DNA of 64,000 nt from an uncultured Gammaproteobacteria bacterium (lineage in GTDB: Bacteria; Pseudomonadota; Gammaproteobacteria; UBA9214): contig CAWGNW010000009.1 in the NCBI GenBank assembly GCA_963824045.1, positions 4,709-68,708 on the forward strand, read 5' to 3'. Shown in pieces: positions 5,006 to 54,260 of this stretch (its first letter is position 1; every line of letters starts with the position of its first letter). A program made the position numbers and the translations under genes. Below the pieces are notes generated by a model. That model did not search any database, was not told the DNA's origin, and worked only from the letters and a program-made list of their open reading frames with translations.

Positions 5006-5061
5006 TGCGCTGCACCTGTCACAATCCGCTGACACGCCCACGCCGCGCGGCACAAACTAAC

Positions 5062-19098: not shown

Positions 19099-19210
19099 GG
19101 TGGCTTGTACCGGTCCCCCCGCGACGATAAGCTGTGAACCCCGTCAGGCCCGGAAGGGAGCAGCGGCAGCAGTGGACTCGGGCGCCGGGGTGTGGCTGGT
19201 GCAGGTCACC
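19099..19210 (+). ncRNA. ffs: Signal recognition particle RNA (4.5S RNA, small SRP RNA)
   Basis: GTCAGGCCCGGAAGGGAGCAGC matches the conserved domain IV of bacterial 4.5S RNA (CAGGUCCGGAAGGAAGCAGC). The ends GGTGGC.../...GGTCACC can pair. It sits immediately upstream of dnaX, as in Pseudomonas. Confidence 0.7.
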
Positions 19211-23871: not shown

Positions 23872-25135
23872 TCAACCTCCGGGTGATTGGACACCCATGT
23901 TACCGGATATGTGCGCGATGCGCACCGGTGCCGGCGGGTGGGAATCGTGAAACGACGAGTACAGCGGGTCGGGGGTCAGCGTGCTGGCGTTTTCGCGATA
24001 CATCTTGACCAGGGCCTGGATCAGGTCCGCACCGCTGGATTGCTGCACGGCATAGGCATCGGCCTCGAACTCGTGCTTGCGCGACAGGCGTGACAGCAGC
24101 GGCTGCAGGAATATGGTGAATACCGGCAGCACCAGCATGAACAGCAGCAGCGCCATGCCGGAGGAGGCCTGGCTGACGCCGAGGCCGGTGTAGAACCAGG
24201 ACTCGCCGGCCAGCCAGCCGAGCAGGGCCAGCGCGGCGAAGCTGAGGAGCATCGTCGACAGCAGGCGTTTCTGGATATGCCTGAGCCGGAAATGACCGAG
24301 TTCATGTGCAAGTACCGCCTCGATTTCCTGTGGTTCCAGCGACTCCAGCAGGGTGTCGAAGAAGACGATGCGCTTGTTGCTGCCAAAGCCGGTGAAATAG
24401 GCGTTGCCGTGTCCCGAGCGCTTGGAACCGTCCATGACGAAGATCCCCTTGCTGTGGAAGCCGCACTTGTCCATCAGCGCCTGGATGCGTTGTTTCAGCG
24501 CCTCGTTATCCAGCGGCATGAACTTGTTGAACAGGGGTGCGATAATCGCGGGATAGGCCCAGAACATCACCAGGGTGAAGGCCATCCAGACCAGCCAGAC
24601 ATACAGCCACCAGAGCCCGCCCGAGGATTCCATGATCCACAGGGCCAGCGCCAGCAACGGAGCCGCCGATGACGAGCAGCAGTATGGCCTGCTTCAGCAG
24701 GTCGGCGATGAACACGCCGGCCGTGGAGCGGTTGAAGCCAAAGCGCTGTTCGATCACGAAGGTGTGGTAGAGCGTGAACGGCATGTCCAGCAGGGTCATG
24801 ATGACCATGGCACTGAGCAGCAGGCCGGTGCCGCCGGGGATCGGGCCGAGTCCGGTATCGCGCCAGATGCCGTCCAGCAGTTCGAGTCCGCCGCCCAGGG
24901 TCCAGCCCAGCAGCAGCAGGCTGTCCCAGGCCAGTGCCAGCATCCCGAAACGGGTATTGGTGAGGGTGTAGTCTGCGGCCTTCTGGTGATCCGCCAGCGA
25001 AATGCGTTCTGCGAAGGAGGCGGGGACCGCCGCGCGATGCGCACGCACGTGGGCCAGGTGCCTGGCGGCAAGCCAGTAACGCAGCAGCAGCGAGCCGGCC
25101 AGCGCCGCGATAAAAATAAAGCTGAAGTTATTCAT
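23872..25135 (-). CDS. M48 family zinc metalloprotease (Ste24/HtpX-like), with apparent indel near 24655-24668
   Basis: The N-terminal frame is a multi-TM region ending ...LLKQAILLLVIGG. The C-terminal frame continues ALALWIMESSGGLWWLYVWL...PLFNKFMPL...HELGHFRLRHI, which is the HEXXH motif. Confidence 0.8.
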
Positions 25136-28110: not shown

Positions 28111-28929
28111 TTAAACTTCCAGCGGCAGTTCCGGGTTGTTGCCCCAGTCTGACCAGGACCCGACATAACCCCTGACGCGTTCAAAGCCCAGGCTTTGCAG
28201 CACCAGGCAGGTGTGCGCGGAGCGGTGATGGGTCTGGCAGTAGGCGATGATTTCCTTGTCGGGGGTGATGCCGCGCTCCGCCAGCAGGCCTTTGAGTTCG
28301 TCGGCAGGCTTCAGGCGCAGGTTGCTTGCCTGATCCATGGCCTCGGTCCATTCGAAATTCACAGCGCCGGGTATGTGGCCGGCGCGTTCGGCGTATTTCT
28401 TGATACCCTTGTACTCGTCAGGGCTGCGGGCATCCAGCAGGACGCAGTCGTCCCTGTTCAGGTGCGCCATGATGTAGTCGCTGTCCGCGCTGGATGCCGT
28501 GTCGCGGTGCACCTCGAATACCCTTGCGACGGGCGTCGCCGGGACTGAATCCAGGGTGTGTCCCTCGTTCACCCAGGCATGCAGGCCGCCGTTGAGCAGT
28601 GACAGGCTGTGATGGCCGGCGACTTCCAGCGTCCACAGCAGGCGGGCAGCGCGGCCGCCACCCTCGTCATCACAGGCAACGATGTGTGTCCGGGCATCGA
28701 TCCCGATGTTGGAGAATACCGCGGCCAGTGTGGCGTCGTCCGGTACCAGGCCCATCACCGGTTTTTGCGCGGTGATGATCCTGGCGTAGTCCAGGTGCAC
28801 CGCGCCGGGCACATGAAATTTTGCATAGCTTTCAGGCCTGGAGAGATCGACCACCAGCAGGTCATCGCGTCCCAGGTTCGCCTCCAGTTCATCCGGTTCC
28901 AGTAACAGGGGCAACTTGTCCGTTGTCAT
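28111..28929 (-). CDS. Tandem-domain rhodanese-like sulfurtransferase (thiosulfate/3-mercaptopyruvate sulfurtransferase family)
   Basis: Two rhodanese domains. The active-site loop is CQTHHRS. Confidence 0.8.
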   Translation of the reverse strand: MTTDKLPLLLEPDELEANLGRDDLLVVDLSRPESYAKFHVPGAVHLDYARIITAQKPVMGLVPDDATLAAVFSNIGIDARTHIVACDDEGGGRAARLLWTLEVAGHHSLSLLNGGLHAWVNEGHTLDSVPATPVARVFEVHRDTASSADSDYIMAHLNRDDCVLLDARSPDEYKGIKKYAERAGHIPGAVNFEWTEAMDQASNLRLKPADELKGLLAERGITPDKEIIAYCQTHHRSAHTCLVLQSLGFERVRGYVGSWSDWGNNPELPLEV

Positions 28930-30157
28930 TTGTTCCTCTCGGTATCAGGGTTTCAAGGAGTTCGATCCAGTGTTTCACCGGTACGTCCGCATGGTTCGCC
29001 ATGTGCACCAGACAGCCGATGTTCGCGGTCGCAATGAGGTCCGGCCTGCCGGCCTGCAGGGCTTCGAGCTTGTTGTCACGCAGCACGGTGGCCATGCCAG
29101 GCTGCAGGATCGAGTAGGTGCCTGCGGAGCCGCAGCAGAGATGGCTGTTTGTGACCGGCGTCAGTTCGTAGCCGAGCCTTTCCAGCAGGCGCTCGACCAC
29201 GCCGCTGATGCCCTGGCCGTGCTGCAGGGTGCAGGGAGAATGAAATGCGACTTTTTGCCCGGCGCCACAAGGCACGAGGACCTGCTCCGCCGCTTCGCTG
29301 GCGATGACTTCGCTGAGGTCCTTCGCCAGGGCGCTGACGCGGGCAGCCTTGTCGGCATAGCCGGTATCCGCGAGCAGCCGTCCATAGTCCTTCACCATGG
29401 GCGCACAGCCGCTGGCCGTCACGATTATCGCCTCCGCGCCGTTTTCGATTGCCGGCCACCACGCGTCGATGTTGTTGCGTATGAAGGTGCGCGCCTCGGC
29501 GGTTGCCGTCAGGTGCTGGCTGAGCGCACCGCAACAGCCGGCGTTCCCGGCGACCAGGGTGTTGATGCCCATGGCATCCAGCACCCGGCGCGTGGCTGCA
29601 TTGATCTGCGGTGCAAGTGCCGGCTGCACGCAGCCGTCCAGCAGCAGCATGCTGCGGTTGTGGACGCTTGTTGCGCGGAAAGGCGCCGCCCGCTGCCTTG
29701 CGGGGATGCGCTTCCTCAGCGCCGCCGGCAGCACCGGGCGCGCGAATTGCCCCAGCCGCAGCAGCGGCGTGAAGCGGGCCGCCCACGGCAGCACCAGGCG
29801 CAGGGTCCGGCGCAGCAGGCGGTCCTGCAGACTGCGGGGAAGGCGTTCCTCGATGATTTCCCGGCCGGTATCGAGCAGCAGGTGGTAGTCCACGCCGGAC
29901 GGGCAGGTGGTCTCACAGGCGCGGCAGGTCAGGCAGCGGTCCAGGTGCAGCCGGTTGCGTTCGGTGGGTGCCTTGCCTTCGAGCACCTGCTTGATTTGAT
30001 AGATGCGCCCGCGGGGTCCGTCGAGTTCATCGCCGGTCAGCTGGTAGGTCGGGCAGGTCGCGTTGCAGAAACCGCAGTGCACGCAGTTGCGCAGGATCTC
30101 GTCCGCAACCTGTCCGGTGACGGTTCTGAGCAGATCTTCCGGGAGCGCGGTTTGCAT
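28889..30157 (-). CDS. glcF: Glycolate oxidase iron-sulfur subunit
   Basis: Starts MQTALPEDLL. Two 4Fe-4S ferredoxin motifs CxxCxxCxxxCP and CCG domains. The upstream glcE stop lies 2 nt away. Confidence 0.85.
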   Translation of the reverse strand: MQTALPEDLLRTVTGQVADEILRNCVHCGFCNATCPTYQLTGDELDGPRGRIYQIKQVLEGKAPTERNRLHLDRCLTCRACETTCPSGVDYHLLLDTGREIIEERLPRSLQDRLLRRTLRLVLPWAARFTPLLRLGQFARPVLPAALRKRIPARQRAAPFRATSVHNRSMLLLDGCVQPALAPQINAATRRVLDAMGINTLVAGNAGCCGALSQHLTATAEARTFIRNNIDAWWPAIENGAEAIIVTASGCAPMVKDYGRLLADTGYADKAARVSALAKDLSEVIASEAAEQVLVPCGAGQKVAFHSPCTLQHGQGISGVVERLLERLGYELTPVTNSHLCCGSAGTYSILQPGMATVLRDNKLEALQAGRPDLIATANIGCLVHMANHADVPVKHWIELLETLIPRGTNDNGQVAPVTGTG

Positions 30158-30159
30158 CG

Positions 30160-31215
30160 CTACAGCTCCGCGTACATACGACCGGGGTTGAGGATGCCGG
30201 CGGGGTCGAAACTTTGCTTGAGCCGCCGCTGCAGTGCAAGCATGCCGGGCGGCAGCGGGTGAAAAACCGCGCCGCTGCGGTCGCCATGCCGGTACAGGGT
30301 GGCGTGGCCGCCGCTTGCCGCGGTCAGATCGCGGATGTGTTCCGGGTTGGCATGGCTCTTCAGCCAGCGCTGCGCACCACCCCAGTCGAGCAGCTGCCTG
30401 CCGTCGAGGCCGAGGCCGGGCGCGGCCGGGGGTACGGACAGTCTCCACAAGGGAATGTCGTCCCGGAAGAAGGGCAGTTGCTGTTCGCGCAGCGCCTGCC
30501 AGACCTGCGCACCTTCCTCGCAGGTATCGCCGCCAACAACCGCAGCTGCCGCCGCTACACCCCGGGTCGAGCCGGAAAGCCGCAGGTACAGACGGCCATC
30601 GATATGGCAGGCGCCGGACAAGGGCAGGGGCTGGCCTGCCCAGCGGTTGCAGCGGAGCACGGCCTCGTCTGCCGCGCAGTCCTGCTGCAGGGTGATATCG
30701 GCTTCCGGTCGCGGCAGGACCTTCAGGTTGATTTCGAGCAGTACGGCCAGGGTGCCGAGCGAACCGGTCAGCAGGCGCGACAGGTCATAGCCGGCGACAT
30801 TCTTCATGACCTGGCCGCCGAAGCGCAGGATTTCACCCCTGCCATTGAGACAGCGCACACCCAGCACGAAATCGCGCGCCGCACCGGCGTAGGGTCGCCG
30901 CGGTCCCGACAGGCCGCAGGCGATGGTGCCCCCCAGTGTGGCCGTGCTGCCGAAATGCGGTGGCTCGAAGGCCAGCATCTGACCTTCCTCTGCCAGCGCC
31001 GCTTCCAGCACGGCCAGCGGTGTGCCGGCGCGTGCCGAGATGACCAGTTCCGCCGGTGTGTAGTCAATGATGCCGCTGTGCTCGCCGACCGGGCAGGTCC
31101 GGCCTTCACAGGCACGCCCGTAAAAGGCCTTGCTGCCGCCACCCCGGATGGCCAGCGGGGTGCCGTCCGCGGTGGCGGCCTGTAGTTGCTCGACGAGGGT
31201 TTGTTCGCAGCTCAT
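30160..31215 (-). CDS. glcE: Glycolate oxidase FAD-binding subunit
   Basis: FAD-binding PCMH-type domain: TPLAIRGGGSKAFYG. Confidence 0.85.
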   Translation of the reverse strand: MSCEQTLVEQLQAATADGTPLAIRGGGSKAFYGRACEGRTCPVGEHSGIIDYTPAELVISARAGTPLAVLEAALAEEGQMLAFEPPHFGSTATLGGTIACGLSGPRRPYAGAARDFVLGVRCLNGRGEILRFGGQVMKNVAGYDLSRLLTGSLGTLAVLLEINLKVLPRPEADITLQQDCAADEAVLRCNRWAGQPLPLSGACHIDGRLYLRLSGSTRGVAAAAAVVGGDTCEEGAQVWQALREQQLPFFRDDIPLWRLSVPPAAPGLGLDGRQLLDWGGAQRWLKSHANPEHIRDLTAASGGHATLYRHGDRSGAVFHPLPPGMLALQRRLKQSFDPAGILNPGRMYAEL

Positions 31216-31237
31216 GCCGGGTCAGTGGTTCGTTGTT

Positions 31238-32692
31238 TCAGAAACGTTCCAGCCCGGGGTGCGGCAGCTGGCCATGATGGACGTGCATGGCGCCGAATTC
31301 GGCGCAGCGGTGCAGGGTGGGAATCGCCTTGCCGGGATTGAGCAGGTTCTGCGGATCGAATGCCTGCTTCACGGCGTGAAACTGCTGCAATTCGGCTTCG
31401 TTGAACTGCACGCACATCTGGTTGATTTTCTCGAGGCCGACGCCGTGCTCGCCGGTGATGGTGCCGCCGACTGCTACGCACAGCTCCAGGATTTTTCCGC
31501 CGAGTTCCTCGGTACGTTCCAGTTCGCCGGCCTTGTTGGCATCGTAGAGAATCAGCGGGTGCAGATTGCCGTCGCCCGCGTGAAAGACATTGCAGATCGG
31601 CAGGCCGTATTCCCCGGAGAGTTCGCCGATGCGGGTCAGCACTGCCGCCAGATGCTTGCGGGGGATCGTGCCGTCCATGCAGTAATAGTCGGGTGACAGC
31701 CTTCCCATGGCGGGGAAGGCGGCCTTCCTGCCAGCCCAGAAGCGCTGGCGCTCCGCCTCGTCGCGGGATACCTGCAGCGAGGTTGCGCCGGCATCCCGGT
31801 AGACCTGGCTGACACGCTCGACCTGGGCCAGGACATCTTCCCGGGAGCCGTCCAGTTCGCACAGCAGGATCGCGCTGGCGTCTTCCGGATAGCCCGTATC
31901 GATGAATCTGCGCACGGCATGAATTGCCGGCCGGTCCAGCAGTTCCAGGCCGGCGGGAATGATGCCGCTGGCGATGGTCGCCGTTACGGCGGCGCCGGCG
32001 GCATCGACCGAATCGAAGGCGGCCAGCACGACCTGTGCGGTGGCCGGCTTCGGCAGCAGCTTGACGGTGACCTCGACAATAATGCCCAGCAGCCCCTCGG
32101 AACCGGTCAGCAGCGCAAGCAGGTCATAGCCGGGGCTGTCGAGTGCCGCGCCTCCAATCGTGAGCGCTTCACCGTCTATAGTCAGGATTTCCAGCGCCAG
32201 GATGTTGTGCGTGGTGAGGCCATACTTGAGGCAATGCACGCCGCCGGCATTTTCCGCTACATTGCCGCCGATGGAACAGGCGATCTGTGACGACGGGTCG
32301 GGTGCGTAGTACAGGCCGTGTGGAGCTGCGGCGCAGGAGATGGCCAGGTTGGTAACGCCGGGTTGTACGCGCGCAATGCGGTTGCCGGTGTCCAGTTCAA
32401 GGATGCGGTTGAACCTCGCCAGACTGAGCAGCACACCGTTGCCAAGCGGCATGGCACCGCCGGACAGTCCGGTGCCGGCGCCGCGCGCGACTACCGGCAC
32501 CTGGTGTTGTGCGCACAGGCGTAACGTTGCCTGCAATTGTTGCAGCGTTTCCGGAATCACCACGACCAGCGGCAGCTGGCGGTACGCGGACAGTGCATCG
32601 CATTCGTAGGGGCGCAATTCATCCGAATGCGACAGGATGCAACGCGCCGGAAGCAGATTTTGCAACAGGCGTATGAACGATTCTTCGTGCAT
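31238..32692 (-). CDS. glcD: Glycolate oxidase subunit GlcD (FAD-linked oxidase)
   Basis: VVARGAGTGLSGGAMPL is the FAD-binding motif. 484 aa. Confidence 0.85.
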   Translation of the reverse strand: MHEESFIRLLQNLLPARCILSHSDELRPYECDALSAYRQLPLVVVIPETLQQLQATLRLCAQHQVPVVARGAGTGLSGGAMPLGNGVLLSLARFNRILELDTGNRIARVQPGVTNLAISCAAAPHGLYYAPDPSSQIACSIGGNVAENAGGVHCLKYGLTTHNILALEILTIDGEALTIGGAALDSPGYDLLALLTGSEGLLGIIVEVTVKLLPKPATAQVVLAAFDSVDAAGAAVTATIASGIIPAGLELLDRPAIHAVRRFIDTGYPEDASAILLCELDGSREDVLAQVERVSQVYRDAGATSLQVSRDEAERQRFWAGRKAAFPAMGRLSPDYYCMDGTIPRKHLAAVLTRIGELSGEYGLPICNVFHAGDGNLHPLILYDANKAGELERTEELGGKILELCVAVGGTITGEHGVGLEKINQMCVQFNEAELQQFHAVKQAFDPQNLLNPGKAIPTLHRCAEFGAMHVHHGQLPHPGLERF

Positions 32693-32823
32693 GAATGCGG
32701 GCTTGTGTCAAGCGTTGAAGTCAGATCAAGATCAGGGGATTATCGCCGATAGCGCGGGAAATAGCAGTAATCAGTCGAGAGTATTGCGGCAGTCAGCAGC
32801 AGTCAGCATGTTACTATACGAAG

Positions 32824-33346
32824 ATGAATCAGGTACTCGGACAATATGTGCATCATGGCATTCCACCGGTGAGTTTTGCCGGCCTGATGGAATTGTACGA
32901 GTGCAATTACATTCGCCTGCGTAATCTGGTGCCGGATAGCTGACGCCATTCCTGACGCAGTTGTTTCACACATCGATGGCGCGCTCGACCTGCATCTGCG
33001 CATCACGGAGCGCTGCAGGTTTACTACCACGCTCGGCCTCACTTACTATTTCCAGGACGCTGTCGGCAGTTTTCCTGCACCTGACATACAGGTCCGTATC
33101 TACCACGATGCCCAGGTCGGGGAAGTCATTTCCTGCGGCCGCCGCCGCGGCATGCGTCACGCACGCTACAACCGCATGCGCAACCACTACACCCTGGCCG
33201 AGAAATGGCGCATGAACCGGTTTCTGCAGAAATGGCTGGGATACTGCCTGATGCAGGGGCATCGCTTTACTCCCGGGAACATCATCCTTGCAGCAGAAAA
33301 TACCCTCCCAGCAGTCGAGGATTCCCTGCTGATTGTTGAATCCTGA
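32824..33346 (+). CDS. yqiB: DUF1249 (YqiB-like) protein, with apparent indel near 32925-32950
   Basis: Frame 1 reads ...GLMELYECNYIRLRNLVPD and stops at a TGA. The +1 frame continues ...HIDGALDLHLRITERCRFTTT...VRIYHDAQVGEVI...NRFLQKWLGYCLMQGH. Both parts are collinear with E. coli YqiB. Confidence 0.6.
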
Positions 33347-33424
33347 AGAATTTCTACCCCCTGTATACCCCTATTGAGCAGTAAGCCAAGACTTGCGCCA
33401 CCCCCGGGTCTGTCGCATACTTAG

Positions 33425-33450
33425 TACCTGAGCATTTTACTCGGTTATTA
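33425..33450 (+). promoter_or_regulatory. Putative IscR autoregulatory site in the iscR promoter region
   Basis: GCATTTTACTCGGTTATT resembles the CAATTTACTCGGGAATG element of the E. coli iscR promoter. It lies about 50 bp upstream of the iscR ATG. Confidence 0.35.
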
Positions 33451-33494
33451 TTCCAGGGTCATAACCACGGTCCCGAGAATCGACAGGTAATATC

Positions 33495-33974
33495 ATGCGG
33501 CTATCAACCAAGGGGCGCTATGCAGTGACCGCCATGCTGGATCTTGCCATCCACCATGACGAGGGTCCTGTAACGCTCGCGGATATATCCGAGTCACAGG
33601 GCATCTCGCTGTCCTACCTCGAGCAGCTGTTCGCGCGCCTGAAGAAACAGGGCCTGGTAACCGGCATGCGCGGCCCGGGTGGCGGCTACCGGCTGTCGCA
33701 CCCGCCGGGCGAAATTTCCATCGCACAGGTGATCAATGCAATCGGTGAGGGAATCGATGCAACCATGTGCCAGGGCAAGCAGGATTGCCAGGACGGCGAA
33801 CGCTGCCTGACACATGAATTGTGGCAGAAGCTGGGTGCCGAGATTTATAATTTCCTCAGTGGTATTACGCTTGCCGGTTTTCTCGAACGTGACCGGGTGA
33901 ATGAGATTGTGCTCCGCCAGCGCAAGGCTGTGCCTGTCGCAACGCCCGCGCTGAACAAGACGATGGTCGGGTGA
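33495..33974 (+). CDS. iscR: Fe-S cluster assembly transcriptional regulator IscR (Rrf2 family)
   Basis: [18 protein letters not shown]... is the Rrf2 N-terminus. It contains three Cys cluster ligands. Confidence 0.85.
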
Positions 33975-34015
33975 TCCCCCCTTTTTTCTGAAATTTGATT
34001 GTCAAGGTGACAGGA

Positions 34016-35236
34016 ATGAATATCAGCATCCCTATCTACATGGATTACTCGGCTACCACACCGGTTGATGAGCGTGTGGCCGAGAAAATGTGTACCTATC
34101 TCACGCGCCAGGGCAAGTTCGGCAACCCGGCATCGCGCTCGCACCAGTTCGGCTGGCAGGCGGAGGAGGCCGTGCAGCAGGCCCGCGAAGATGTGGCCCG
34201 GCTGATCAATGCCGACCCGCGGGAAATCGTCTGGACGTCGGGTGCGACAGAGTCCGACAACCTGGCCATCAAGGGCGTTGCGCATTTCTACAAGAAGAAC
34301 GGCAAGCACATTATCACCCTGAAAACCGAACACAAGGCGGTGCTGGATTCCTGCCGGCAGCTGGAACGCGAAGGCTATGAAGTCACTTACCTCGAGCCCG
34401 AATCCAGCGGACTGCTGGACCTGGAGAAATTCCAGAGCGCCTTGCGGGATGACACCATTCTGGTCAGTGTCATGCACGTCAACAACGAGATCGGCGTGAT
34501 ACAGGACATCGCTGCGATCGGCGAGATTTGCCGCGCCCGCAAGATCATCTTCCATGTCGATGCCGCGCAAAGTGCCGGCAAGGTCGAGATCGACATGGAG
34601 AAGCTCAAGGTCGACCTGATGTCGTTTTCCGCACACAAGATCTACGGTCCCAAGGGCATCGGCGCCCTCTATGTCAGGCGCAAGCCGCGGGTGCGAATCG
34701 AGGCGCAGATGCATGGCGGCGGGCATGAGCGCGGCTTGCGTTCCGGTACCCTGCCGACTCACCAGATCGTTGGCATGGGAGAGGCATTCCGTATTGCCCG
34801 GCTGGAAATGGCCGAGGAAGAAGCGCGTATCCGCGTGTTGCGTGATCTTCTCTGGCAGGGGCTGAACGAAATGGAGGAGGTCTATCTCAACGGTGACTTC
34901 GATCAGCGGGTGCCGGGCAACCTGAACGTGAGCTTTAATTACGTGGAGGGTGAAAGCCTGATCATGGCGCTGAAGGATATGGCGGTTTCTTCAGGTTCCG
35001 CCTGTACCAGTTCCAGTCTGGAACCCTCCTATGTCCTGCGGGCGATCGGCCGCAATGACGAGTTGGCGCACAGTTCCATCCGCTTTACCATCGGTCGCTT
35101 TACCACCCGGGAAGAGATCGACTATATCGTCGAGCGGGTCAGGGAAAAGGTCGCCAAGCTGCGCGAGCTGTCGCCGCTCTGGGACATGTTCAAGGAGGGC
35201 ATCGACCTGAACTCTGTCAAATGGGCGGCACACTAG
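34016..35236 (+). CDS. iscS: Cysteine desulfurase IscS
   Basis: Near-identical in motif order to E. coli IscS, including [12 protein letters not shown], the [15 protein letters not shown]-Lys motif and SSGSACTS. Confidence 0.9.
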
Positions 35237-35240
35237 AAGG

Positions 35241-35573
35241 ATGGCAGGCATGGCAATCACATTGACAACCGCGGCGGCAGAGCGCGTCAGGAACTTTCTG
35301 GAACAGCGGGGCAAGGGCGTGGGCCTGCGCCTCGGCGTGAAGACCACCGGTTGTTCCGGAATGGCCTATGTCATGGAGTATGCCGACAGCATCGAGGACG
35401 AGGACGTGGTGTTCGAGGACCAGGGTGTCAAGGTCATCATCAACCCGAAGAGCCTGGTCTACCTGGACGGTACCGAGCTGGACTACACCCGCGAAGGACT
35501 GAACGAGGGCTTCCAGTTCAACAATCCCAATGTCAAGGATATGTGCGGCTGCGGGGAGAGTTTCAACGTTTGA
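35241..35573 (+). CDS. iscA: Iron-sulfur cluster insertion protein IscA (A-type carrier)
   Basis: Ends CGCGESF. 110 aa. It starts 5 nt after the iscS stop, so there is no iscU between them. Confidence 0.85.
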
Positions 35574-35613
35574 CGATCGGTGGCAGCAGCCCCGCACGCA
35601 GTCAGTTTCCGTT

Positions 35614-36166
35614 ATGGCCAAGCATGCTTCCACAGACCATTTCGCGCGATTCGGAATGCCAAGGTCGTTCGACATGGACCTCGGTGTTCTGGACTCCCGT
35701 TACCGCGAACTGCAGCGAACCGTCCATCCGGACCGGTTTGCCAGCGCCGGGGAGGCCGAGCGTCGCCTCTCCATGCAGCAGGCAACGACTATCAACGAGG
35801 GCTACCAGACGCTGAAGGATCCCCTGAAGCGGGGACGCTACCTGCTGGAGTTATCCGGTTACAATCTCGGGGACGAGCCGCATACCACCCGCGATACCGC
35901 ATTTCTCATGCAGCAGATGGAGTTGCGCGAAGCTGCTGGACGAGGTGCGTGGCAGCAGCGACCCGTTTGCCGCCTTGCAAAGTATCATGGACAGGATCGC
36001 TGCGGACATTGTCAACTTGCAGGCGCAGCTGCGGGAAAATTTCGAGCGCGCCACCGTTGCTGATCTGGAAGCCGCCGCCACTGCCTTGATGAAGATGCAG
36101 TTCTTTCGGCGCCTGCAGGAAGAGGTCATGGACCTGGAAGCCGCGCTGGAGGATGAACTGGTCTGA
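35614..36166 (+). CDS. hscB: Co-chaperone HscB, with apparent indel near 35928-35934
   Basis: The J-domain frame reads ...[14 protein letters not shown]...[13 protein letters not shown]. The +1 frame continues [30 protein letters not shown]...LEDELV. Confidence 0.8.
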
Positions 36167-36249
36167 ACGTGCATTACCGGTGACGCTTGCTCACCTGGTC
36201 GACTTCCCCCGGACCTTGTCTGGTAACAAGTATATAAACCAAATCAATC

Positions 36250-38130
36250 ATGGCATTACTACAAATCTCCGAACCCGGTCAGTCCACCGCGCCACACCAG
36301 CACCGGCTGGCGGCAGGCATCGACCTGGGTACCACCAATTCACTGGTAGCCAGTGTGCGCAGCGGTACGGCTGATACCCTGCCGGATGCGGAAGGTCGCC
36401 ATCTGCTGCCTTCGGTCGTGCGCTACCAGGCAGGCAGGGCGCCGGTCGTGGGCGCGGCTGCGCTGGCAGCAGCGGTAACGGACCCGCTGAACACCATCGC
36501 TTCGGTCAAGCGGCTTATGGGCCGCGGTATCGAGGATGTACGGCATATCGGTACCTCGCTGCCGTATGAATTTGTTCCCGGTTCCAGCGGCATGCCGCTA
36601 GTGCACACTGCCGCGGGGAATCTCAGCCCCGTCGAGGTCTCGGCGGAAATCCTGCGGGCGCTGAAGACCCGGGCGGAGGCAACCCTGGGTGGAGAGCTGC
36701 AGGGCGTGGTGATTACCGTGCCGGCGTATTTCGATGATGCCCAGCGCCAGGCAACCCGGGATGCCGGGCGTCTTGCCGGTCTGAATGTAATGCGTCTGCT
36801 GAACGAACCCACGGCCGCGGCTGTAGCCTACGGACTGGACAAGGGCTCCGAGGGCATCATCGCCATCTACGATCTGGGCGGGGGTACCTTTGATATTTCC
36901 ATCCTGCGTCTCAACCGCGGCGTGTTCGAAGTCATGTCGACGGCCGGTGATTCGGCGCTGGGCGGTGATGACATGGACCGCGCCGTGGCCGGCTGGCTGA
37001 TGCAGCAGGCCGGCATCGAGGATGACGCTGGACACGGGCAGCTGCGCCATTTGCTGCAGGTGGCGCGCAGCGCAAAGGAAGCACTCACCACCGGGACAAG
37101 TACGCCGGTCTGCATCGAACGCGATAACGGCAGCCGCTGGGAAGGGGAGCTGTCACGCGAAACGCTCAACCGGCTGATTGCGTCACTGGTGGAGAAATCA
37201 CTGTTGCCCTGCCGGCGTGCGCTGCGTGATGCGGGTGTGCGTACCGCGGATATCGGGAAGATTGTCATGGTCGGCGGCTCCACACGTGTCCCTCTGGTAC
37301 GCGAGCGGGTGGCGGCATTTTTCGAAGCCGAGCCGATGGTGGATATCGACCCCGACAAGGTGGTCGCGGTCGGTGCAGCGATCCAGGCCGATATCCTGGC
37401 AGGCAACAAACCCGATGATGAAATGCTGTTGCTGGACGTGATTCCCCTGTCGCTGGGTATCGAGACCATGGGCGGACTCACGGAGAAGATCATTCCGCGC
37501 AACACCACCATCCCGACGGCACGGGCACAGGAATTCACTACCTTCAAGGACGGGCAGACGGCGATGTCACTGCACGTGGTGCAGGGCGAACGTGAACTGG
37601 TCGAGAACTGCAGGTCGCTGGCACGCTTCGAGCTGCACAATATCCCGCCGATGGTGGCCGGTGCAGCGCGTATCCGCGTGACTTTCCAGGTGGATGCCGA
37701 CGGCCTGCTGAATGTAACCGCCGAGGAGGAGACACAGGGCGTAAAAAGCAGCATCGAGGTGAAGCCCTCGTACGGCTTGAGTGACGGTGAAATTGAAACC
37801 ATGCTGCGCGACTCCATGGCATATGCCGGGGATGACCGGGATGCGCGCCGGTTGCGGGAAGAACAGGTGGAGGCCGACCGGGTACTGGAAGCGCTGCGGG
37901 CGGCGCTGGCGGCTGATGGCGACGAATTGCTGAGTGCTGCGGAACGCGAGCTTGTTGAAGCCGCCGCGCTGGCGCTGGAAGCGGCGCGCACCGGCGGCGA
38001 CTACCGGGCCATCAAGGCGGCGATTGCAGCCGTTGAACAGGCCAGCAGCGCTTATGTCGAGCGCCGCATGAATACCAGCATCAGCAAGGCCATGGCAGGA
38101 CATGCCGTGGATGAATTTAAATCAAAGTGA
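36250..38130 (+). CDS. hscA: Fe-S protein assembly chaperone HscA (Hsp70 family)
   Basis: Hsp70 signatures [11 protein letters not shown] and DLGGGTFD. 626 aa. Confidence 0.9.
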
Positions 38131-38166
38131 TTCCCGCAGGAATCAAACAGCGGATAACATGACGCC

Positions 38167-38505
38167 ATGACACAGATCATCTTTCTGCCCCATGAAGAAA
38201 TCTGCCCCGAGGGGGCGGTCGTGGAGGCCGATCCGGGTACCACCATTTGTGATGCCGCCCTGCAGCATGGCATCGAGATTGAACACGCCTGCGAGAAGTC
38301 CTGTGCCTGCACGACCTGTCATGTCTACATCCGCGAGGGTGGCGAGTCGCTGCAGGAGTCCGAAGAGGACGAGGACGACCTGCTCGACAAGGCCTGGGGG
38401 CTGGAGCCGGATTCCCGGTTGAGTTGCCAGACCGTCGTCGCGGACAAGGACCTTGTCGTGGAGATACCCAAGTACACCATCAACATGGTGAGCGAGACCC
38501 ATTGA
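38167..38505 (+). CDS. fdx: ISC-system [2Fe-2S] ferredoxin
   Basis: CEKSCACTTCH...C motif. 112 aa. Confidence 0.9.
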   Translation: MTQIIFLPHEEICPEGAVVEADPGTTICDAALQHGIEIEHACEKSCACTTCHVYIREGGESLQESEEDEDDLLDKAWGLEPDSRLSCQTVVADKDLVVEIPKYTINMVSETH

Positions 38506-38532
38506 ATTAACTGCCGCGACGTCTGCAGCGCG

Positions 38533-38757
38533 GTGCTGGAGTGGAGAAATATGCTGATGCCCCTGAGCTGGACTGACACGCTGGATATCGCTATCGAACT
38601 CGAAGAGGCCCATCCGGAAGTGGACCCCCTGCACGTCAACTTCGTGGACCTGCGCAACTGGGTGCTGGCGCTGGATGATTTCGACGACGATCCGGAGCAC
38701 TGCGGTGAACGCATACTCGAGGCCATCCAGATGGCCTGGATCGAGGAGCGCCAGTAG
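38533..38757 (+). CDS. iscX: Fe-S assembly protein IscX (true start probably at the Met at 38557)
   Basis: MPLSWTDTLDIAIELEEAHPEVDPLHVNFVDLRNWVLALDDFDDDPEHC is collinear with E. coli IscX. Confidence 0.75.
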   Translation: MLEWRNMLMPLSWTDTLDIAIELEEAHPEVDPLHVNFVDLRNWVLALDDFDDDPEHCGERILEAIQMAWIEERQ

Positions 38758-38805
38758 CCGGTTCTTCCCGGCAGAGGCCAGCGCGCACCGTGCCGCGGCC
38801 CATGG

Positions 38806-38838
38806 AAAAACGGCGACACCAGTCGTCGTTTTTTATTG
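38806..38838 (+). terminator. Rho-independent terminator after iscX
   Basis: Hairpin GGCGACacCaGTCGtCG followed by TTTTTTATT. Confidence 0.5.
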
Positions 38839-39292
38839 AGTCATGTGGACTCCGGGTTGCTGCCGGATACAGTGGTTTCCTGTTGCCGGCGCGAAGCGGG
38901 CTTCACCAGAGCTGGCCGGCTATCGCCTGGCGCATGACATCAAAAGACAGCTGCGGGGCGCGGGAATAATCACCTGCACATCAGCAGTCCCGGGATCTCT
39001 CACCAGACGCGAGTGACGGCGCGGTTTTGCTGTGCCAGCAAATCTGTCGACATCCCCGGAATGTGTTTATCCGTATGTTTTATAAGCACAATAGTGTGCA
39101 TGCCGGGGCGTTGCCGGCGGGCCGGATCGGATATGGCCACGGCCGCCCTGGCGGGTATTCACATTCCATTAGGCGCGCCAACCTTGTATATTACGCGGCT
39201 TTGCTCCTGCCGGTATTCCGCTGGGTAACATTTCCGGGCCGATCGACGTGGCCGGGTTCCGATGTGCTGACAAATCTGACTAGAGGTAGACC

Positions 39293-40268
39293 ATGGCTGT
39301 AAGAAATCGCCTGCATCGCAGTGAACTGGCTGTTCCCGGAAGCAATATCCGCATGCTGGAAAAGGCGCCCACTGCCGGCGCCGACGTGGTATTCCTGGAT
39401 CTGGAGGATGCCGTTGCACCGGATGACAAGGCGCAGGCCCGCAAGAATGTCATCGAGGCGCTGAATGACATGGACTGGTCGAACTGCTCCGTGTCCGTGC
39501 GGATCAACGGGCTGGATACCCACTACTGCTACCGCGACATCGTCGACGTGGTCGAGCAGGCCGGTGACAAGCTCGACACCATCCTGATTCCCAAGGTAAA
39601 CACTCCCGCTGACATTCTGTTCGTCTCGACCATGCTGGAGCAGATCGAGGCCGCGAAGGGCTATGATCCCGATCAACCTGCACATCCTGATCGAGACCGC
39701 CAGGGGCATGGCGAATGTGGAAAGCATTGCGCAGACCTGCCCCGAACGCCTCGAGGCCATGGTCTTCGGGGTTGCGGATTACGCCGCATCCACCCAGGCG
39801 CGCACCACCAACATGGGCGGCGCCAACCCGGATTACTACACCCTGACGCACCCGGACGAGCAGGGCAGGCGCGAGCGTCACTGGGGCGACCAGTGGCATT
39901 TCGCGATCTCGCGCATGGTTGTCGCCTGCCGTGCCTACGGCTTGCGCCCGATCGACGGGCCTTTTGGTGACTTCAACGACCCGGACGGCTATCTCGCCGT
40001 TTCCAGCAGTGTCGCGGCCCTGGGTGTCGAGGGCAAGTGGGCCATCCATCCGTCGCAGATTGCGCTGGCCAACCAGATATTTACCCCGGCCGCGAAGGAA
40101 GTTGACCGTGCCCGTCGCATCCTGGCGGCGATGGCAGAGGCCGCCCGGGAAGGCCGCGGCGCAGTGGCGCTTGACGGGCGCCTGATCGATGCCGCCTCGA
40201 TTCGCCAGGCACAGGTGCTGGTGGACAAGGCCGACCAGATCGAGAAATCCCTGGCGGGCCGTCATTAA
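39293..40268 (+). CDS. mcl: HpcH/CitE-like lyase, probable malyl-CoA lyase, with apparent indel near 39665-39674
   Basis: Frame 1 reads SELAVPGSNIRMLEKAPTAGADVVFLDLEDAVAPDDKAQARKNVIEALND...ILIPKVNTPADI. The +1 frame reads IPINLHILIETARGMANVESIA...VDGPFGDFND...GKWAIHPSQIALANQIFTP. Both are collinear with L-malyl-CoA lyase. Confidence 0.75.
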
Positions 40269-40291
40269 CGCAAAGAAGCGGAGAAGCTGAC

Positions 40292-41461
40292 GTGAATATT
40301 CATGAATATCAGACCAAGGAACTGCTGCGCGGCTACGGCGTGCCGGTTCCGGATGGCCGTGTGGCCCACACCGTGGACAATGCTGCCACGGTAGCCGAGG
40401 AACTTGGCGGTGAACGCTGGGTCGTGAAGGCGCAGATCCATGCCGGCGGCCGCGGCAAGGGCGGCGGGGTAAAGGTCGCCTCCAGCATCGATGAGGTCAA
40501 GCAGTTCACGGACCACATGATAGGCAGCCACCTGGTGACGCCGCAGACCGGACCGGAAGGCCGGCTGGTGCAGCGCGTGCTGGTCGAGCAGGCATCCAGC
40601 ATCCGGAAGGAATTCTACCTCGGCCTGGTCATCGATCGCGCCACCCAGCGCATCACCGTCATCGCCTCGGCCTCGGGCGGCATGAATATCGAGGAGGTCG
40701 CCAGGACCCACCCCGAACGCGTGATTCGCGAGGCCGTCGACCCGGCGGTCGGGCTGATGCCGTTTCAGTGCCGCAAGATCGCCGCGCAGATCGGTCTCAC
40801 CGGCAAGCAGATCAACGAGGCCACCAAGCTGATGCGGTCTCTGTACCGCTGTTTCCGCGACAAGGATGCGCTGCTGGCGGAAATCAATCCGCTGGCGGAA
40901 GTCGACGGCGGCAAGCTGATTGCGCTGGACGCCAAGATGTCCTTTGATGGCAATGCCATGTTCCGTCGTCCCGGCATCACGGAACTGCGCGACTTCGACG
41001 AGGAAGATCCGAAAGAGGTCGAGGCCACCGCCCACGGTCTGAACTACATCGCACTCGATGGCAACGTCGGCTGCATCGTGAACGGTGCCGGACTGGCCAT
41101 GGCCACCATGGATGCCATCAGTTTCCACAATGGCAAGCCGGCCAACTTCCTCGATGTCGGCGGCGGCGCCTCGCCGGAAAAAGTGGGCAATGCCTTCCGT
41201 ATCGTGCTGCAGGACCCCAACGTCAAGATCATCCTGGTCAACATTTTCGCCGGCATCAATCGCTGCGACTGGATCGCCGAGGGGCTGGTGCAGGCAATGC
41301 GCGATCAGCATATCGAGGTGCCAATCGTGGTGCGCCTAGCCGGGACCAACGTCGAGAAGGGCGGTCCGATCCTGGTGGAGTCCGGCTTCCCGTTTATCAT
41401 GGCCGAAAACCTGGATGATGCCGCCACCAGGGTCATGGCTGCGCTGGAGGGTTTGTCATGA
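40292..41461 (+). CDS. mtkA: Succinyl-CoA-synthetase-like ligase beta subunit, probable malate-CoA ligase (malate thiokinase) large subunit (GTG start)
   Basis: ATP-grasp motif MNIHEYQTKELL...VVKAQIHAGGRGKGGGVKV and the SucC/MtkA signature GIVNGAGLAMATMD. It directly follows the lyase gene. It is not in a sucABCD context. Confidence 0.75.
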   Translation: MNIHEYQTKELLRGYGVPVPDGRVAHTVDNAATVAEELGGERWVVKAQIHAGGRGKGGGVKVASSIDEVKQFTDHMIGSHLVTPQTGPEGRLVQRVLVEQASSIRKEFYLGLVIDRATQRITVIASASGGMNIEEVARTHPERVIREAVDPAVGLMPFQCRKIAAQIGLTGKQINEATKLMRSLYRCFRDKDALLAEINPLAEVDGGKLIALDAKMSFDGNAMFRRPGITELRDFDEEDPKEVEATAHGLNYIALDGNVGCIVNGAGLAMATMDAISFHNGKPANFLDVGGGASPEKVGNAFRIVLQDPNVKIILVNIFAGINRCDWIAEGLVQAMRDQHIEVPIVVRLAGTNVEKGGPILVESGFPFIMAENLDDAATRVMAALEGLS

Positions 41462-42327
41462 GCGTCTTCGTCCACAAACATTCACGCGTCATTATCCAGG
41501 GTTTCACCGGTCAGCACGCAACCTTTCATGCCGAAGAGGCCATGCAACACGGCACCACCGTGGTTGGCGGCGTGACGCCCGGGAAGGGCGGCATGACCCA
41601 TCTCGGCCTGCCGGTATTCGACACGGTGCACCAGGCGGTGCAGGAAACCGGCGCCGATGTCAGCGGTATTTTCGTGCCGCCGCCCTTTGCCGCCGATGCC
41701 ATCATGGAGGCGCTGGAAGCCGGGGTCGGGGTGGTGGTGGTAATCGCCGACGGCATCCCGGTCCAGGACATGGTGCAGGTGAAGCGCTACGCCGCCGATC
41801 GCAACGCCGTGATCATCGGGCCGAACACGCCGGGCATCATCACACCCCGGGCCTGCAAGGTCGGCATCATGCCGTCACATATCTACACGCCGGGCCGCAT
41901 CGGCGTGGTGTCGCGTTCCGGTACGCTAAACTACGAGGCCGTGCAGCAGATGTCCGTGCTGGGCATGGGCCAGTCGACCTCGGTCGGCATCGGTGGCGAC
42001 CCGGTGAACGGCACCGATTTCGTGACCGTGCTGCGCGCCTTCGAGGAAGACCCCGAAACGGATGCGGTGATCATGATCGGCGAGATCGGCGGGCCGCAGG
42101 AAGTTGATGCGGCGCGCTGGGCGCAGGAAAACATGAGCAAGCCCATCGTCGGCTTCGTGGCCGGCGTGTCGGCGCCGCCCGGGCGGCGTATGGGTCACGC
42201 GGGCGCCATCATCTCCGGGGAAGCCGATACCGCGAATGCGAAAATGGACCTGATGGCGGAACTGGGCGTGCACGTGGTGCGCAATCCCGCCCTGATCGGC
42301 GAGACTGCCCACCGGGTGTTTTCCTGA
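41458..42327 (+). CDS. mtkB: Succinyl-CoA-synthetase-like ligase alpha subunit, probable malate-CoA ligase small subunit
   Basis: CoA-binding fold VIIQGFTGQHATFH and a phospho-His region. Its ATG overlaps the mtkA stop (ATGA). Confidence 0.75.
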   Translation: MSVFVHKHSRVIIQGFTGQHATFHAEEAMQHGTTVVGGVTPGKGGMTHLGLPVFDTVHQAVQETGADVSGIFVPPPFAADAIMEALEAGVGVVVVIADGIPVQDMVQVKRYAADRNAVIIGPNTPGIITPRACKVGIMPSHIYTPGRIGVVSRSGTLNYEAVQQMSVLGMGQSTSVGIGGDPVNGTDFVTVLRAFEEDPETDAVIMIGEIGGPQEVDAARWAQENMSKPIVGFVAGVSAPPGRRMGHAGAIISGEADTANAKMDLMAELGVHVVRNPALIGETAHRVFS

Positions 42328-42590
42328 GCCAGGAAGGGGTGCGGACGGTTCTGTCGCTCCTGTTACCGCAGCCGCCGGGGAAATGCGGGTGCTGCCGCTG
42401 TGGCACTCCTCATGCCACTGGCGGCTGTGCCGGCGAGCGGTATTTTGGCAGTCGGGCAGCCCCGCCGGGGCAGCCCGGCGGCATTGCCTAAGACGTCCCT
42501 TCCGCTTAAACTACCGGCTCGAAATAGTGTCGATAAATTACCGTTTTTTTACGGATTTCCAGTTAGCAGAAAGTATGCACGGAGTATTGC

Positions 42591-43022
42591 ATGGCCATTG
42601 AGAGAACCTTTTCCATTATCAAACCCGACGCAGTCGCCAGGAACGTGATCGGCGAGATTGTCAGCCGGTTCGAGAAGAACGGGCTGCGCATCATCGCCTC
42701 GCGCATGCTGCATCTGAGCAGGGAACAGGCGGAAGGCTTCTATGCCGTGCACCGGGGACGTCCTTTCTTCAATGACCTGGTTGCCTTCATGATCTCCGGG
42801 CCGGTAGTCGTGCAGGTGCTCGAGGGTGAAAATGCCATCAGCAAGAACCGCGAACTGATGGGCGCCACCAACCCCCAGGAAGCAGCCCCCGGCACCATTC
42901 GCGCGGATTTCGCCAAGACCGTGGACGAAAATGCCGTGCACGGTTCCGATGCACCTGAAACCGCCGCCCAGGAAATCGAGTTCTTCTTCGGTGAAGGCGG
43001 GCTGTGTCCGAGAACCCGCTAG
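42591..43022 (+). CDS. ndk: Nucleoside diphosphate kinase
   Basis: [15 protein letters not shown]...NAVHGSD is the active-site His region. 143 aa. Confidence 0.9.
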
Positions 43023-50149: not shown

Positions 50150-50631
50150 GACTTCCCCCGTCTGACCGCATAGCAGCTTATATATACCCGAAGATGTCAT
50201 GAGGAGTATCAGGGCAGTTGCAATTTGCGCAACAAACACCTGCCCGAACAGGCATGATGATTTCATAGTGATCTACCCGAAAACCCTGCCCGTTTCTGGA
50301 TTTACAGCCAGAAATTTGTTGTTGATTCTTGACTGTTATCCCAACCATATCCCAACAGCATATCCACCATCAGGCTCTGATAGATTCAGGATGACACATA
50401 TACCGCGTTATCAGTTCGCAGATGTTCCAAACGGGTCGTTACCCGTCCTTCAATGTAATCCTGTACCAGAAAATCCTCCAGGGCCGGGTTCGGGCAGCTT
50501 CTTGTCGTTCTTCAGATTCGGTCGCGTTTCTGAAAAGCAGCAACCCCGGTCTTTTGGCAGCTGGAGAAGTTGAAAAAGAAAACATTGGGATGATCCACAA
50601 TGAGGGCTTGATCAACTGGTCCTTGATACAA

Positions 50632-50922
50632 TTAACTGGACACGAGCTTATCAACTTCCTGCTCTGCCTCGACCCAGTCCTGCAACTCGCCCCCTGGTTC
50701 GAACCCCCTGTTTTCTGCCTTATGGTAGGCAGTGATGGCAATCATCTTCCAGCGTTCCTCTGGCGAAATGTTTATCGACGATATATCCGGCATGGAGGTG
50801 TTTGCGGGGTTCTTTGCGACCTTTCTCGTGGTGGTTTTCTTTACGTTGACTGCCTTTTTCTCGGGCACTGCTTCCTTGGCAGCTTTCTTCGTGGAAGATT
50901 TCTTTTTGATAGGGGGATTCAT
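50632..50922 (-). CDS. DUF2934 domain protein with Lys-rich N-terminus
   Basis: C-terminal EERWKMIAITAYHKAENRGFEPGGELQDWVEAEQEV matches the DUF2934 consensus. AGGAGA lies 6 nt upstream of the ATG. Confidence 0.7.
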   Translation of the reverse strand: MNPPIKKKSSTKKAAKEAVPEKKAVNVKKTTTRKVAKNPANTSMPDISSINISPEERWKMIAITAYHKAENRGFEPGGELQDWVEAEQEVDKLVSS

Positions 50923-51767
50923 GACACTCTCCTGTCAGTTGATGGTAGACACTCTGGTTTGTTGAAAACAGGTGGAGACATTGAGGGTTCCTGTACTCGT
51001 ATGTCGCCAAGGTTACTTTTGTAAAAAAAACGCATTATCCCACCAACAACCCGGGATGTCTTGCCTTGCTCGGGTATGCAGTTCCGGTGACTCAACCCGG
51101 GAAGAGTATGTTCCCGTGTGTGCACCGGGTCAGTATGTCGTGAGTGCCGGGAAACGATCGTGTGTACCCTGTCTTTGCGCAAGGGCGCATGCTCCAGAAT
51201 CACAATAACTTGCCCCTTTCCCGGGTCCCCGGCCTGCTTCCGGCGGGGCACTGCGATCATCCTTTTCGAAAGACTGTTGATCCCGTTCCGCCATGTTTCC
51301 ATTCCTCCCTGTTTGCGTTCCTTGTTCAGGGCTTCGCGCCAGCCGACATCCCGGGCGAGTCGAATCGGCACAGTATACTCAACCCTGTCAGCACCTTGCC
51401 AGGTGTCGAGTGTTTTATGCCCCTTTATAGACCGTGTACAGGAAACATAGCCGACGCATCTCGAGACAATCCAGCCGATAAACGGGGTGGATTCAGCGGT
51501 TATATCCTGTTCAGTCCAGGGGCGATATTCCCCGGGTTCCCGTGAAGGCCAGGTAAGTACCGGCAGACCTTCGGTTTCTGCCCACTATCTGGTAATACCG
51601 GCAATCAGCCTGCAGGAGTTGGCGGGGGTCGGTGGATGGCAGTCGGACGAAATGTCTTGCGGTATCCCGTTCTTGCACAGGAGCAGCTGGCATGCGCGGC
51701 GGCTCGTATTGAGATGCCGCCGGGGACCGTCGCGAATCACACTGCGACTGCGCTGCGCCAGAAAAGC

Positions 51768-51800
51768 AAAAGGCCCGCACCAGGATGCAGGCTTTTTACT
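51768..51800. terminator. Bidirectional rho-independent terminator downstream of the Gly/Tyr-rich protein gene
   Basis: AAAAGGCCCGCAccaggaTGCAGGCTTTTT: a stem flanked by an A-run and a T-run. Confidence 0.45.
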
Positions 51801-51910
51801 CTATGGTACGCCCGGTGTATCCGTGGCTGACTGGTCGGTCAGCTTTTGCCCCCGGCATTACTGCACAGGCATATTTCCGGACCTGTTTACCCGGTACATT
51901 CTGTTCGGTC

Positions 51911-52297
51911 CTATTCAGGCAGCCTTGGTGGAGGGGCGGCTTGCTCTGCGCCACTTGTCGGGTTTACAACAATGGTCCTCTGCTGCCCGTAACCACCATA
52001 ACCACCATAACCGGGATAGCCACCATAACCACCATAACCACCATAACCGGGATAGCCACCATAACCACCATAACCGGGATAGCCACCATAACCATAGGGT
52101 CCACCTCCGTAGCCGTAGGGTCCATAGCCTCCGTAATCACGGTCATAATACCTGTGATGATCATTGTCATTGTTAAACCACTTGTCCGGCTTCATCATGT
52201 TGCCCATATCGAAGGCCTGCGCGACATTCGCCGCAGCGAGAATTGTCATGCCAAGGGCAGTTCCTGTTGCTACTGAAATGATTTTTATCCGATTCAT
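51911..52297 (-). CDS. Secreted glycine/tyrosine/proline-rich low-complexity protein
   Basis: Signal peptide MNRIKIISVATGTALGMTILAAANVAQA, then DRDYGGYGPYGYGGGPYGYGGYPGYGGYGGYPGYGG... GAGGT lies 8 nt upstream of the ATG. The DNA underneath is a near-perfect tandem repeat (ccaccataacc-type units). Confidence 0.55.
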   Translation of the reverse strand: MNRIKIISVATGTALGMTILAAANVAQAFDMGNMMKPDKWFNNDNDHHRYYDRDYGGYGPYGYGGGPYGYGGYPGYGGYGGYPGYGGYGGYGGYPGYGGYGGYGQQRTIVVNPTSGAEQAAPPPRLPE

Positions 52298-52646
52298 TAC
52301 GGTTACCTCATGGTTGCCATTATTTAACTCGAACCCGGGTTCAAGCAGTTTAACCAGTAATCAGGTGGGCCAGGTGACTGTGCATATCTTCAAATGAGCT
52401 GACTTCCACATATACCCGCTTATAAAACAGACAGCCATACTGCATGATTTACAAACATATTGCATGGTAATCTTGTGCAACGCTGCCTTGGTGGCAGGTG
52501 CCATGGAAAATCCCTGCCGGAATAATATTTGCCCTGCGTCTGGGGACAGTGTAATCGAAATCCCTTGTCGGGTAATTCCTGAAGGGCTATAAGTCAGTTT
52601 GCGCCCCTGGTTTATCGTATTAAACAAAGCCGGTTCGGGGATAATA

Positions 52647-53985: not shown

Positions 53986-54011
53986 TGAAAAACGGCGACC
54001 CGGAGGTCGCC
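53986..54011 (-). terminator. Orphan rho-independent terminator (minus strand)
   Basis: Perfect 7-bp stem GGCGACC-cgga-GGTCGCC. Read on the minus strand it is followed by TTTTTC. No convincing CDS lies upstream of it on that strand. Confidence 0.4.
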
Positions 54012-54260
54012 GCGTAATGAATCCCCACCGTGAAAAAAGCACAATGATGTGCAAAAAAGCAGTGCGGACGAACTACAGGATAGCAGCTGGCAAATTGCAG
54101 TAATATTGTGGAGACTACGTAGCGTGAGGAATAAACTCCGGAAATCGCCTGACTGAACACATTGGCAGTAACCTGTGGATGGTATTCCGGCCATGCGTAA
54201 TAAATTCGCGGCTGCCAGTAATGCTGCGTACCTGCACCGATACCTTCAGGAAAATACCTC

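Follow-up and report, generated by a model that had tools for sequence, protein, structure and literature searches.

How can an operon for iron-sulfur cluster (ISC) assembly serve its cell when the gene of the scaffold protein, iscU, is not in it? The question is raised by the isc operon at positions 33495-38757 (+ strand) of a 64-kb stretch of DNA, hereafter the window, which comes from contig CAWGNW010000009.1 of an uncultured gammaproteobacterium of the lineage UBA9214. The ISC machinery is built around IscU, and the roles of IscS, Fdx, IscX, HscB and HscA are all explained by what they do to this protein. Gene identities in the window were taken from a listing of open reading frames (ORFs) together with NCBIfam profile scans of the encoded proteins, and they give the order iscR-iscS-iscA-hscB-hscA-fdx-iscX, with all genes on the + strand. 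Compared to the canonical iscRSUA-hscBA-fdx-iscX operon of E. coli and Azotobacter vinelandii, the genes, their order, their strand and their tight spacing are the same minus iscU, the downstream ndk-rlmN-pilW-rodZ-hisS synteny also matches, and the catalytic and ligand residues are conserved. The window differs from the canonical operon in lacking iscU, with iscS and iscA lying 4-13 nt apart, and in having an IscR that scores under the equivalog cut-offs and deviates at conserved columns.

The junction between iscS and iscA leaves little doubt about the local absence. The iscS gene (34016-35236, + strand) encodes a cysteine desulfurase of 406 aa if it begins at the ATG at 34016, its likely start and a correction to a preliminary description of this DNA, and it ends with a TAG at 35234-35236. 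The next ATGs are at 35241 and 35250, which correspond to gaps of 4 and 13 nt, respectively. The IscA of all relatives begins with MAITLT, which is the window start at 35250, and by this homology iscA, encoding the A-type carrier, is placed at 35250-35573 (+ strand, 107 aa; the alternative start at 35241 would give 110 aa). With an intergenic stretch of only 4 or 13 nt (35237-35249, + strand), depending on the iscA start, the usual iscU site therefore has no room for the 128 codons of iscU. In tblastn searches of the entire 64 kb with E. coli IscU, B. subtilis SufU and E. coli NfuA, no IscU-, SufU- or Nfu-like match was found, and the motif LPP[VI]K occurs in no frame of the window. The E. coli IscU query can be considered valid, as in 72 other loci it matched iscU at identities of 76-97%. 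The isc operon of the window has no iscU, as had been claimed earlier from the gap between iscS and iscA.

To see how common such operons are, an IscS scan was made with one genome per species, and the isc genes were mapped by tblastn at the 80 loci obtained. In 72 of the 80, iscU directly follows iscS; six have no iscU, and two are uninformative as they end at iscS. Among the 78 informative species loci, the architecture is thus iscS-iscU in 72 and iscU-less in six (L001, L002, L003, L004, which is a Thiohalobacter sp. metagenome-assembled genome, L022 and L034), and the earlier view that it is atypical for a gammaproteobacterium holds. A search with HscB revealed many closer relatives, and the long contigs L083, L084, L088 and L089 were examined, whose HscB identities are 90, 79, 72 and 65%, respectively. 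All four have the order protease-rhodanese-glcFED-DUF1249-iscR-iscS-iscA-hscB-hscA-fdx-iscX. In L083, L084 and L088, mcl-mtkAB-ndk-rlmN-pilW-rodZ-hisS follow downstream; in L089, other genes are in place of mcl-mtkAB, and ndk-rlmN resumes after them. The tight iscS-iscA junction is common to L001-L004, L034, L081, L083, L084, L088 and L089.

The commonality of the junction bears on whether iscU was simply dropped from the assembly by a collapse or a mis-join between iscS and iscA, a point that the preliminary description had marked for checking. Single-base insertions are elevated in the window and the assembly quality is imperfect, which would be in keeping with such an artefact. However, the errors seen are single-base indels and not deletions of 400 bp, and the junction is identical in JGI, ENA and NCBI assemblies that were made by different methods and range from 65 to 100% in HscB identity. 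A collapsed assembly is excluded by the sharing of the junction with many relatives and with L081, an independent contig that is 99.7% identical to the window, and the chance that an artefact accounts for the missing gene is now negligible. Since the relatives have the same iscU-less architecture, we are dealing with a lineage trait and not with a peculiarity of one genome. A comparison with relatives had been proposed from the beginning, with the same split among them to be taken as a lineage trait, and the same split is what was found. Judged from the loci compared, the missing iscU is an inherited, clade-wide variant of the operon and not an assembly error.

The history of the trait was followed with neighbour-joining trees of IscS and of IscS plus IscA, built without bootstrap support. 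In these trees, the window groups with L083, L084, L088, L089, L001 and L002, and then with L003 and L004, in a single iscU-less clade; the carriers of the trait are a group of mostly uncultured, sulfur-type gammaproteobacteria. L022 and L034 fall outside the window clade, each elsewhere in the trees. In L022 the order is iscS-RRM protein-iscA, and in its sisters L051 and L024 it is iscS-RRM-iscU-iscA, the RRM gene being 90% identical. This gene, which encodes a 90-aa RRM-type RNA-binding protein, follows iscS in a Chromatiales lineage (L022 7482-7754; L051 7611-7841; L024 1799-2068). In L022, the RRM gene and iscA are 185 nt apart; a remnant of iscU in this interval was considered and rejected, as the MAFFT match was 16 against 18.3±2.4 for shuffled sequences. 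From the comparisons, there have been at least two independent losses of iscU from the operon, and three if the trees are followed. A gene family found with all iscU-less operons, which could stand in for the scaffold, was looked for without success; they have only ordinary flanking genes in common.

The proteins that remain have, for the most part, the features of their canonical counterparts. IscS scores 776 bits with NF010611 (cut-off 548) and 763 with TIGR02006 (cut-off 643), carries the pyridoxal phosphate-lysine motif and the catalytic loop SSGSACTS, and agrees at 195 of the 196 columns that are near-invariant among iscU-containing relatives (columns being called near-invariant when at least 95% conserved among iscU-containing loci). 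IscA scores 182 bits with TIGR02011 (cut-off 150.6) and has all three of its three Cys ligands, in the motifs GCSG and CGCGESF. HscA, the Hsp70-type chaperone (36250-38130, + strand, 626 aa), scores 985 bits with NF003520 (cut-off 620) and 892 with TIGR01991 (cut-off 709), and agrees at 98.1% of the near-invariant columns. Fdx, the ISC-type [2Fe-2S] ferredoxin (38167-38505, + strand, 112 aa), scores 184 bits with TIGR02007 (cut-off 132), and an identical protein is encoded on the JGI contig L081. IscX (38551-38757, + strand, 68 aa; called at 66 aa from MPLSWTD in relatives) scores 116 bits with TIGR03412 (cut-off 40). As they all exceed curated equivalog cut-offs, the identities of IscS, IscA, HscA, Fdx and IscX are confirmed. 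In the iscU-less loci, these five proteins agree at 97-100% of the near-invariant columns, which is within the range of iscU-containing loci. A terminator-like hairpin with a T-run, picked up by a consensus scan at about 38810-38840 (+ strand), lies 3' of iscX and is the probable end of the operon.

IscR is the only one of the Isc proteins compared that is unusually divergent, and it is so in the window, L001 and L002. The window iscR (33495-33974, + strand) encodes an Rrf2-family regulator of 159 aa, which scores above the cut-off of the Rrf2 superfamily model (147 bits against 73) and is found at the head of the operon, as expected. With the two IscR equivalog models it is under the cut-off (TIGR02010, 196.6 bits against 207.55; NF008110, 197.6 against 275). 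The ligands of the Cys3His cluster site, Cys-x5-Cys-x5-Cys-x2-His, are present. The IscR proteins of L001 and L002 are likewise under the NCBIfam IscR equivalog cut-offs and also keep the Cys3His ligands. Agreement at near-invariant columns is 0.907 in the window and 0.89-0.91 over the window, L001 and L002, and no iscU-containing locus is lower than 0.963. The divergence in these three may mean that regulation is altered in the iscU-less clade. Upstream of iscR, a putative promoter/operator region at 33428-33462 (+ strand), read from the sequence, contains TTTACTCGG, which we presume to resemble the type-1 site of E. coli IscR and take as a lead.

The genes remaining in the operon (for IscR, IscS, IscA, HscB, HscA, Fdx and IscX) are maintained by purifying selection. 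Within the clade, the ratio of nonsynonymous to synonymous substitution rates (dN/dS) is 0.08-0.20 for hscB, 0.08-0.13 for hscA and 0.01-0.14 for the other isc genes, at dS values of 0.4 to more than 1, those of hscB and hscA being 0.5 to more than 1. In HscB, the HPD motif is kept in all iscU-less lineages. Füzéry et al. are said to have found that L92, M93 and F153 of E. coli HscB dominate the binding to IscU. The equivalents of these three residues are kept in the window lineage, L001, L002, L004 and L034. Judging from these residues and the selection on their genes, the chaperones look functional.

The hscB gene of the window itself (35614-36166, + strand) is frameshifted, although it had been listed as intact in the preliminary description. 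Compared to L001, L002 and L081, it has one extra G at 35932, which divides the gene into two reading frames, that of 35614 for the N-terminal part and that of 35945 for the C-terminal part. The NCBIfam match accordingly comes in two pieces: the N-terminal (J-domain) piece scores 96 bits with TIGR00714 (cut-off 46.75), and the C-terminal piece corresponds to positions 107-171 of PRK05014. The insertion would fit a view in which the chaperone branch of ISC is decaying, with iscU already gone and hscB on its way to becoming a pseudogene. Several results make this view very improbable. In L081, a JGI metagenome contig (sample 3300081966) that matches window 31871-42723 (10.85 kb) at 99.72% identity, hscB is intact. 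The shifted C-terminal frame in the window is free of stop codons and can be aligned with relatives, and the dN/dS of hscB is low across the clade. Moreover, at least four other window genes are broken in the same way, which points to errors in the consensus: those for the methanethiol oxidase MtoX, an M48/HtpX-like protease, a DUF1249 protein and a citE/malyl-CoA-lyase-like protein (frameshift-split spans 12180-13494 and 23872-25135 on the - strand, and 32824-33346 and 39293-40268 on the + strand). The window and L081 differ by 26 substitutions and four indels, the window having one inserted base in each case (32941, 35932, 39672 and 42451); none of the four falls in a homopolymer. Every broken window gene that L081 covers is intact there, including those for HscB, DUF1249 and the malyl-CoA-lyase-like protein (324 aa), and the M48 protease split in the window is intact in L088. 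By these comparisons the rate of single-base insertions in the window is raised, so that the quality of its consensus is suspect. Because hscB is intact in L081 and at least four other genes are broken alike, the break in hscB is best explained by an error in the consensus or by a variant that arose very recently in the strain, and not by decay tied to the loss of iscU. This matters for annotating the sequence, in which the apparent hscB pseudogene and the four or more other broken genes are most likely assembly errors.

If the junction is genuine and the chaperones are functional, what do they act upon? We favor, with a probability of about 0.7, that a U-type scaffold comes from a gene at another locus, and that the operon is a true variant of the ISC operon, passed on by vertical descent. 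The common ancestor of the window clade (L001/L002/L083/L084/L088/L089 plus L003 and L004) would have lost iscU, by deletion, from its place between iscS and iscA, and the remaining genes would still work as in the canonical system. Namely, IscS would supply sulfur and Fdx electrons, HscB would bring the U-type scaffold to HscA, and HscA would drive, at the expense of ATP, the release of the cluster from the scaffold to IscA and target proteins. The scaffold gene would be elsewhere in the genome, for example in a second iscR-iscS-iscU module or as a stand-alone iscU- or nifU-type gene. A supply from elsewhere is favored because the IscU-binding surface of HscB is conserved, because HscBA, Fdx and IscX are under selection, and because we know of no HscBA client besides U-type scaffolds.

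Precedents for a separate module exist. In other gammaproteobacteria among those that the searches recovered, loci with iscR-iscS-iscU only are found (L011 and L043). On the 2.27-Mb contig_33 of ENA ERZ21271020, a full operon (L090; iscR-desulfurase-iscS-iscU-iscA-hscBA-fdx-iscX) and a second Rrf2-IscS-IscU module (L091) are about 290 kb apart; the nearest relative of the IscS in the L091 module is that of L005. The isc modules are thus separable and duplicable in these other gammaproteobacteria: L011, L043 and L091 show that the desulfurase/scaffold module and the carrier/chaperone module can be separated or duplicated. These loci are the complement of the window, as the scaffold is present and iscA-hscBA-fdx are absent from the locus. 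With the redundancy afforded by a second module, the operon copy of iscU could be lost. Among the loci scanned, further arrangements were seen. In L011 and L043, iscR-iscS-iscU are followed by genes on the opposite strand; in L012, there is no match to iscA, hscBA or fdx in the 5.6 kb after iscU; and in L028 and L033 (Lamprocystis and Chromatiaceae loci), iscU is present and iscA is not. A second, NifS-like cysteine desulfurase gene, its product about 37-40% identical to IscS, is found between iscR and iscS in L004 (4818-5966), L005, L034, L036, L041, L067, L079 and L090. It occurs in lineages with and without iscU; the window, L001, L002 and L003 do not have it.

Several results weigh against a scaffold supplied from elsewhere. 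The scaffold gene itself was not found: there is none in the 64-kb window, and 167 kb of loci from iscU-less relatives gave no match at E≤1. Nor does the clade sequence examined (the window and the relatives' loci) contain an iscR-iscS-iscU module. In the species scan, the L001 and L002 genomes have no second IscS of about 74% identity or more, which is weakly against a recent iscRSU duplicate. When the IscU proteins of L005 and L051 were compared to the protein database, the 120 matches listed were all at least 89% identical and none was traceable to an iscU-less genome, a result that also counts on this side but is uninformative. Finally, the position equivalent to M93 of HscB, which is M in 62 of 67 iscU-containing loci, is G in L003 and A in L022, both of which are iscU-less.

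A rival reading is that there is no U-type scaffold at all, SufBCD or IscA serving as the scaffold instead, and HscBA, Fdx and IscX being kept for another client, such as IscA or another carrier. IscU, SufU and Nfu were not found in any clade sequence examined, the altered M93 in L003 and L022 fits a change of client, and the repeated loss of iscU from the operon (in the window clade, L022 and L034) would be easy if iscU were dispensable. On the other hand, the sequence examined is about 2% of a genome, so absence there says little; most iscU-less lineages have retained the HPD motif and the IscU-binding triad of HscB; and hscBA are as strongly constrained by purifying selection as iscS is. 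IscX and Fdx, both of which have the IscS-IscU complex as their target, are also retained, and a further difficulty is that HscBA is not known to have any client besides U-type scaffolds. On balance, we find it unlikely that the scaffold has been dispensed with. The stronger proposition, that the window clade and, independently, L022 and L034 have no U-type scaffold genome-wide and yet keep HscB, HscA, Fdx and IscX under strong purifying selection, is doubtful at best. Were it true, HscBA would work on a different client, for example with IscA as the primary scaffold or with a non-homologous scaffold, and the ISC pathway would be one without IscU.

Two known systems might stand in for IscU. 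A U-type domain could come from the NIF system (NifS/NifU), as the preliminary description had suggested with a NifU-like protein; neither the window nor the flanks of the relatives contain a gene for NifU or of the NifS type. In L083, L084, L088 and L089, PF01592 (NifU_N) is absent within 10 kb on either side of the isc operon, and none is in the gene table of L081. To our knowledge, NifU is without the LPPVK motif that HscA uses, which makes it a poor fit with retained HscBA, and nothing found supports NifU as the replacement. In E. coli, SUF can replace ISC scaffolding when iscU is deleted, and the loss of both IscU and SufBCD is lethal (PMC2682760). No suf gene turned up in the sequence examined, the window being covered by tblastn with SufU and by partial annotation. 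As far as we know, SUF does not use HscBA, and because of this a replacement by SUF would not explain the conservation of HscBA. A U-type scaffold encoded elsewhere in the genome remains the reading we prefer.

The surroundings of the operon and some other features of the window were also recorded. Upstream of the operon (28111-32692) are a rhodanese/3-mercaptopyruvate sulfurtransferase-like gene and glcFED, and downstream (39293-42327) are a malyl-CoA-lyase-like gene and genes for malate/succinate-CoA ligase subunits; the isc operon is thus flanked by C2/glyoxylate-type genes. The upstream set of rhodanese, glcFED and DUF1249 is common to L001, L002, L083, L084, L088 and L089. The downstream mcl-mtkAB set is in L081, L083, L084 and L088 and is replaced by other genes in L089. 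A low-GC island at 50400-54340 (0.51-0.54 compared to about 0.61) is possibly horizontally acquired. It has four ORFs of 185-262 aa (50422-51024, 51487-52176, 52599-53387 and 53777-54337) with no Pfam match, and 51487-52176 and 52599-53387 have no NCBIfam match either. The window also has a bacterial small signal recognition particle RNA (68.9 bits), a 747-aa protein with multihaem cytochrome c motifs and TPR repeats, and a PRiA4_ORF3-like protein followed by a 643-aa ORF without a family match; the positions listed with these features are 19108-19204, 54261-56504 and 4424-6741. No rRNA or tRNA gene is present in the 64 kb.

The ISC system itself is known; the iscU-less architecture is a variant not described in the literature searched, which has no report of iscU-less isc operons, nor of Thiohalobacter together with iscU. 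What the finding offers is a large environmental clade in which all the partners of IscU are kept under selection while iscU is gone from the operon. At the least, this would mean that expression of the scaffold has been uncoupled from the IscR-controlled operon. At the most, the clade would be a natural experiment, one that asks if HscBA is able to work with another client, and if it is true that no U-type scaffold exists genome-wide, the ISC paradigm would have a notable exception in it.

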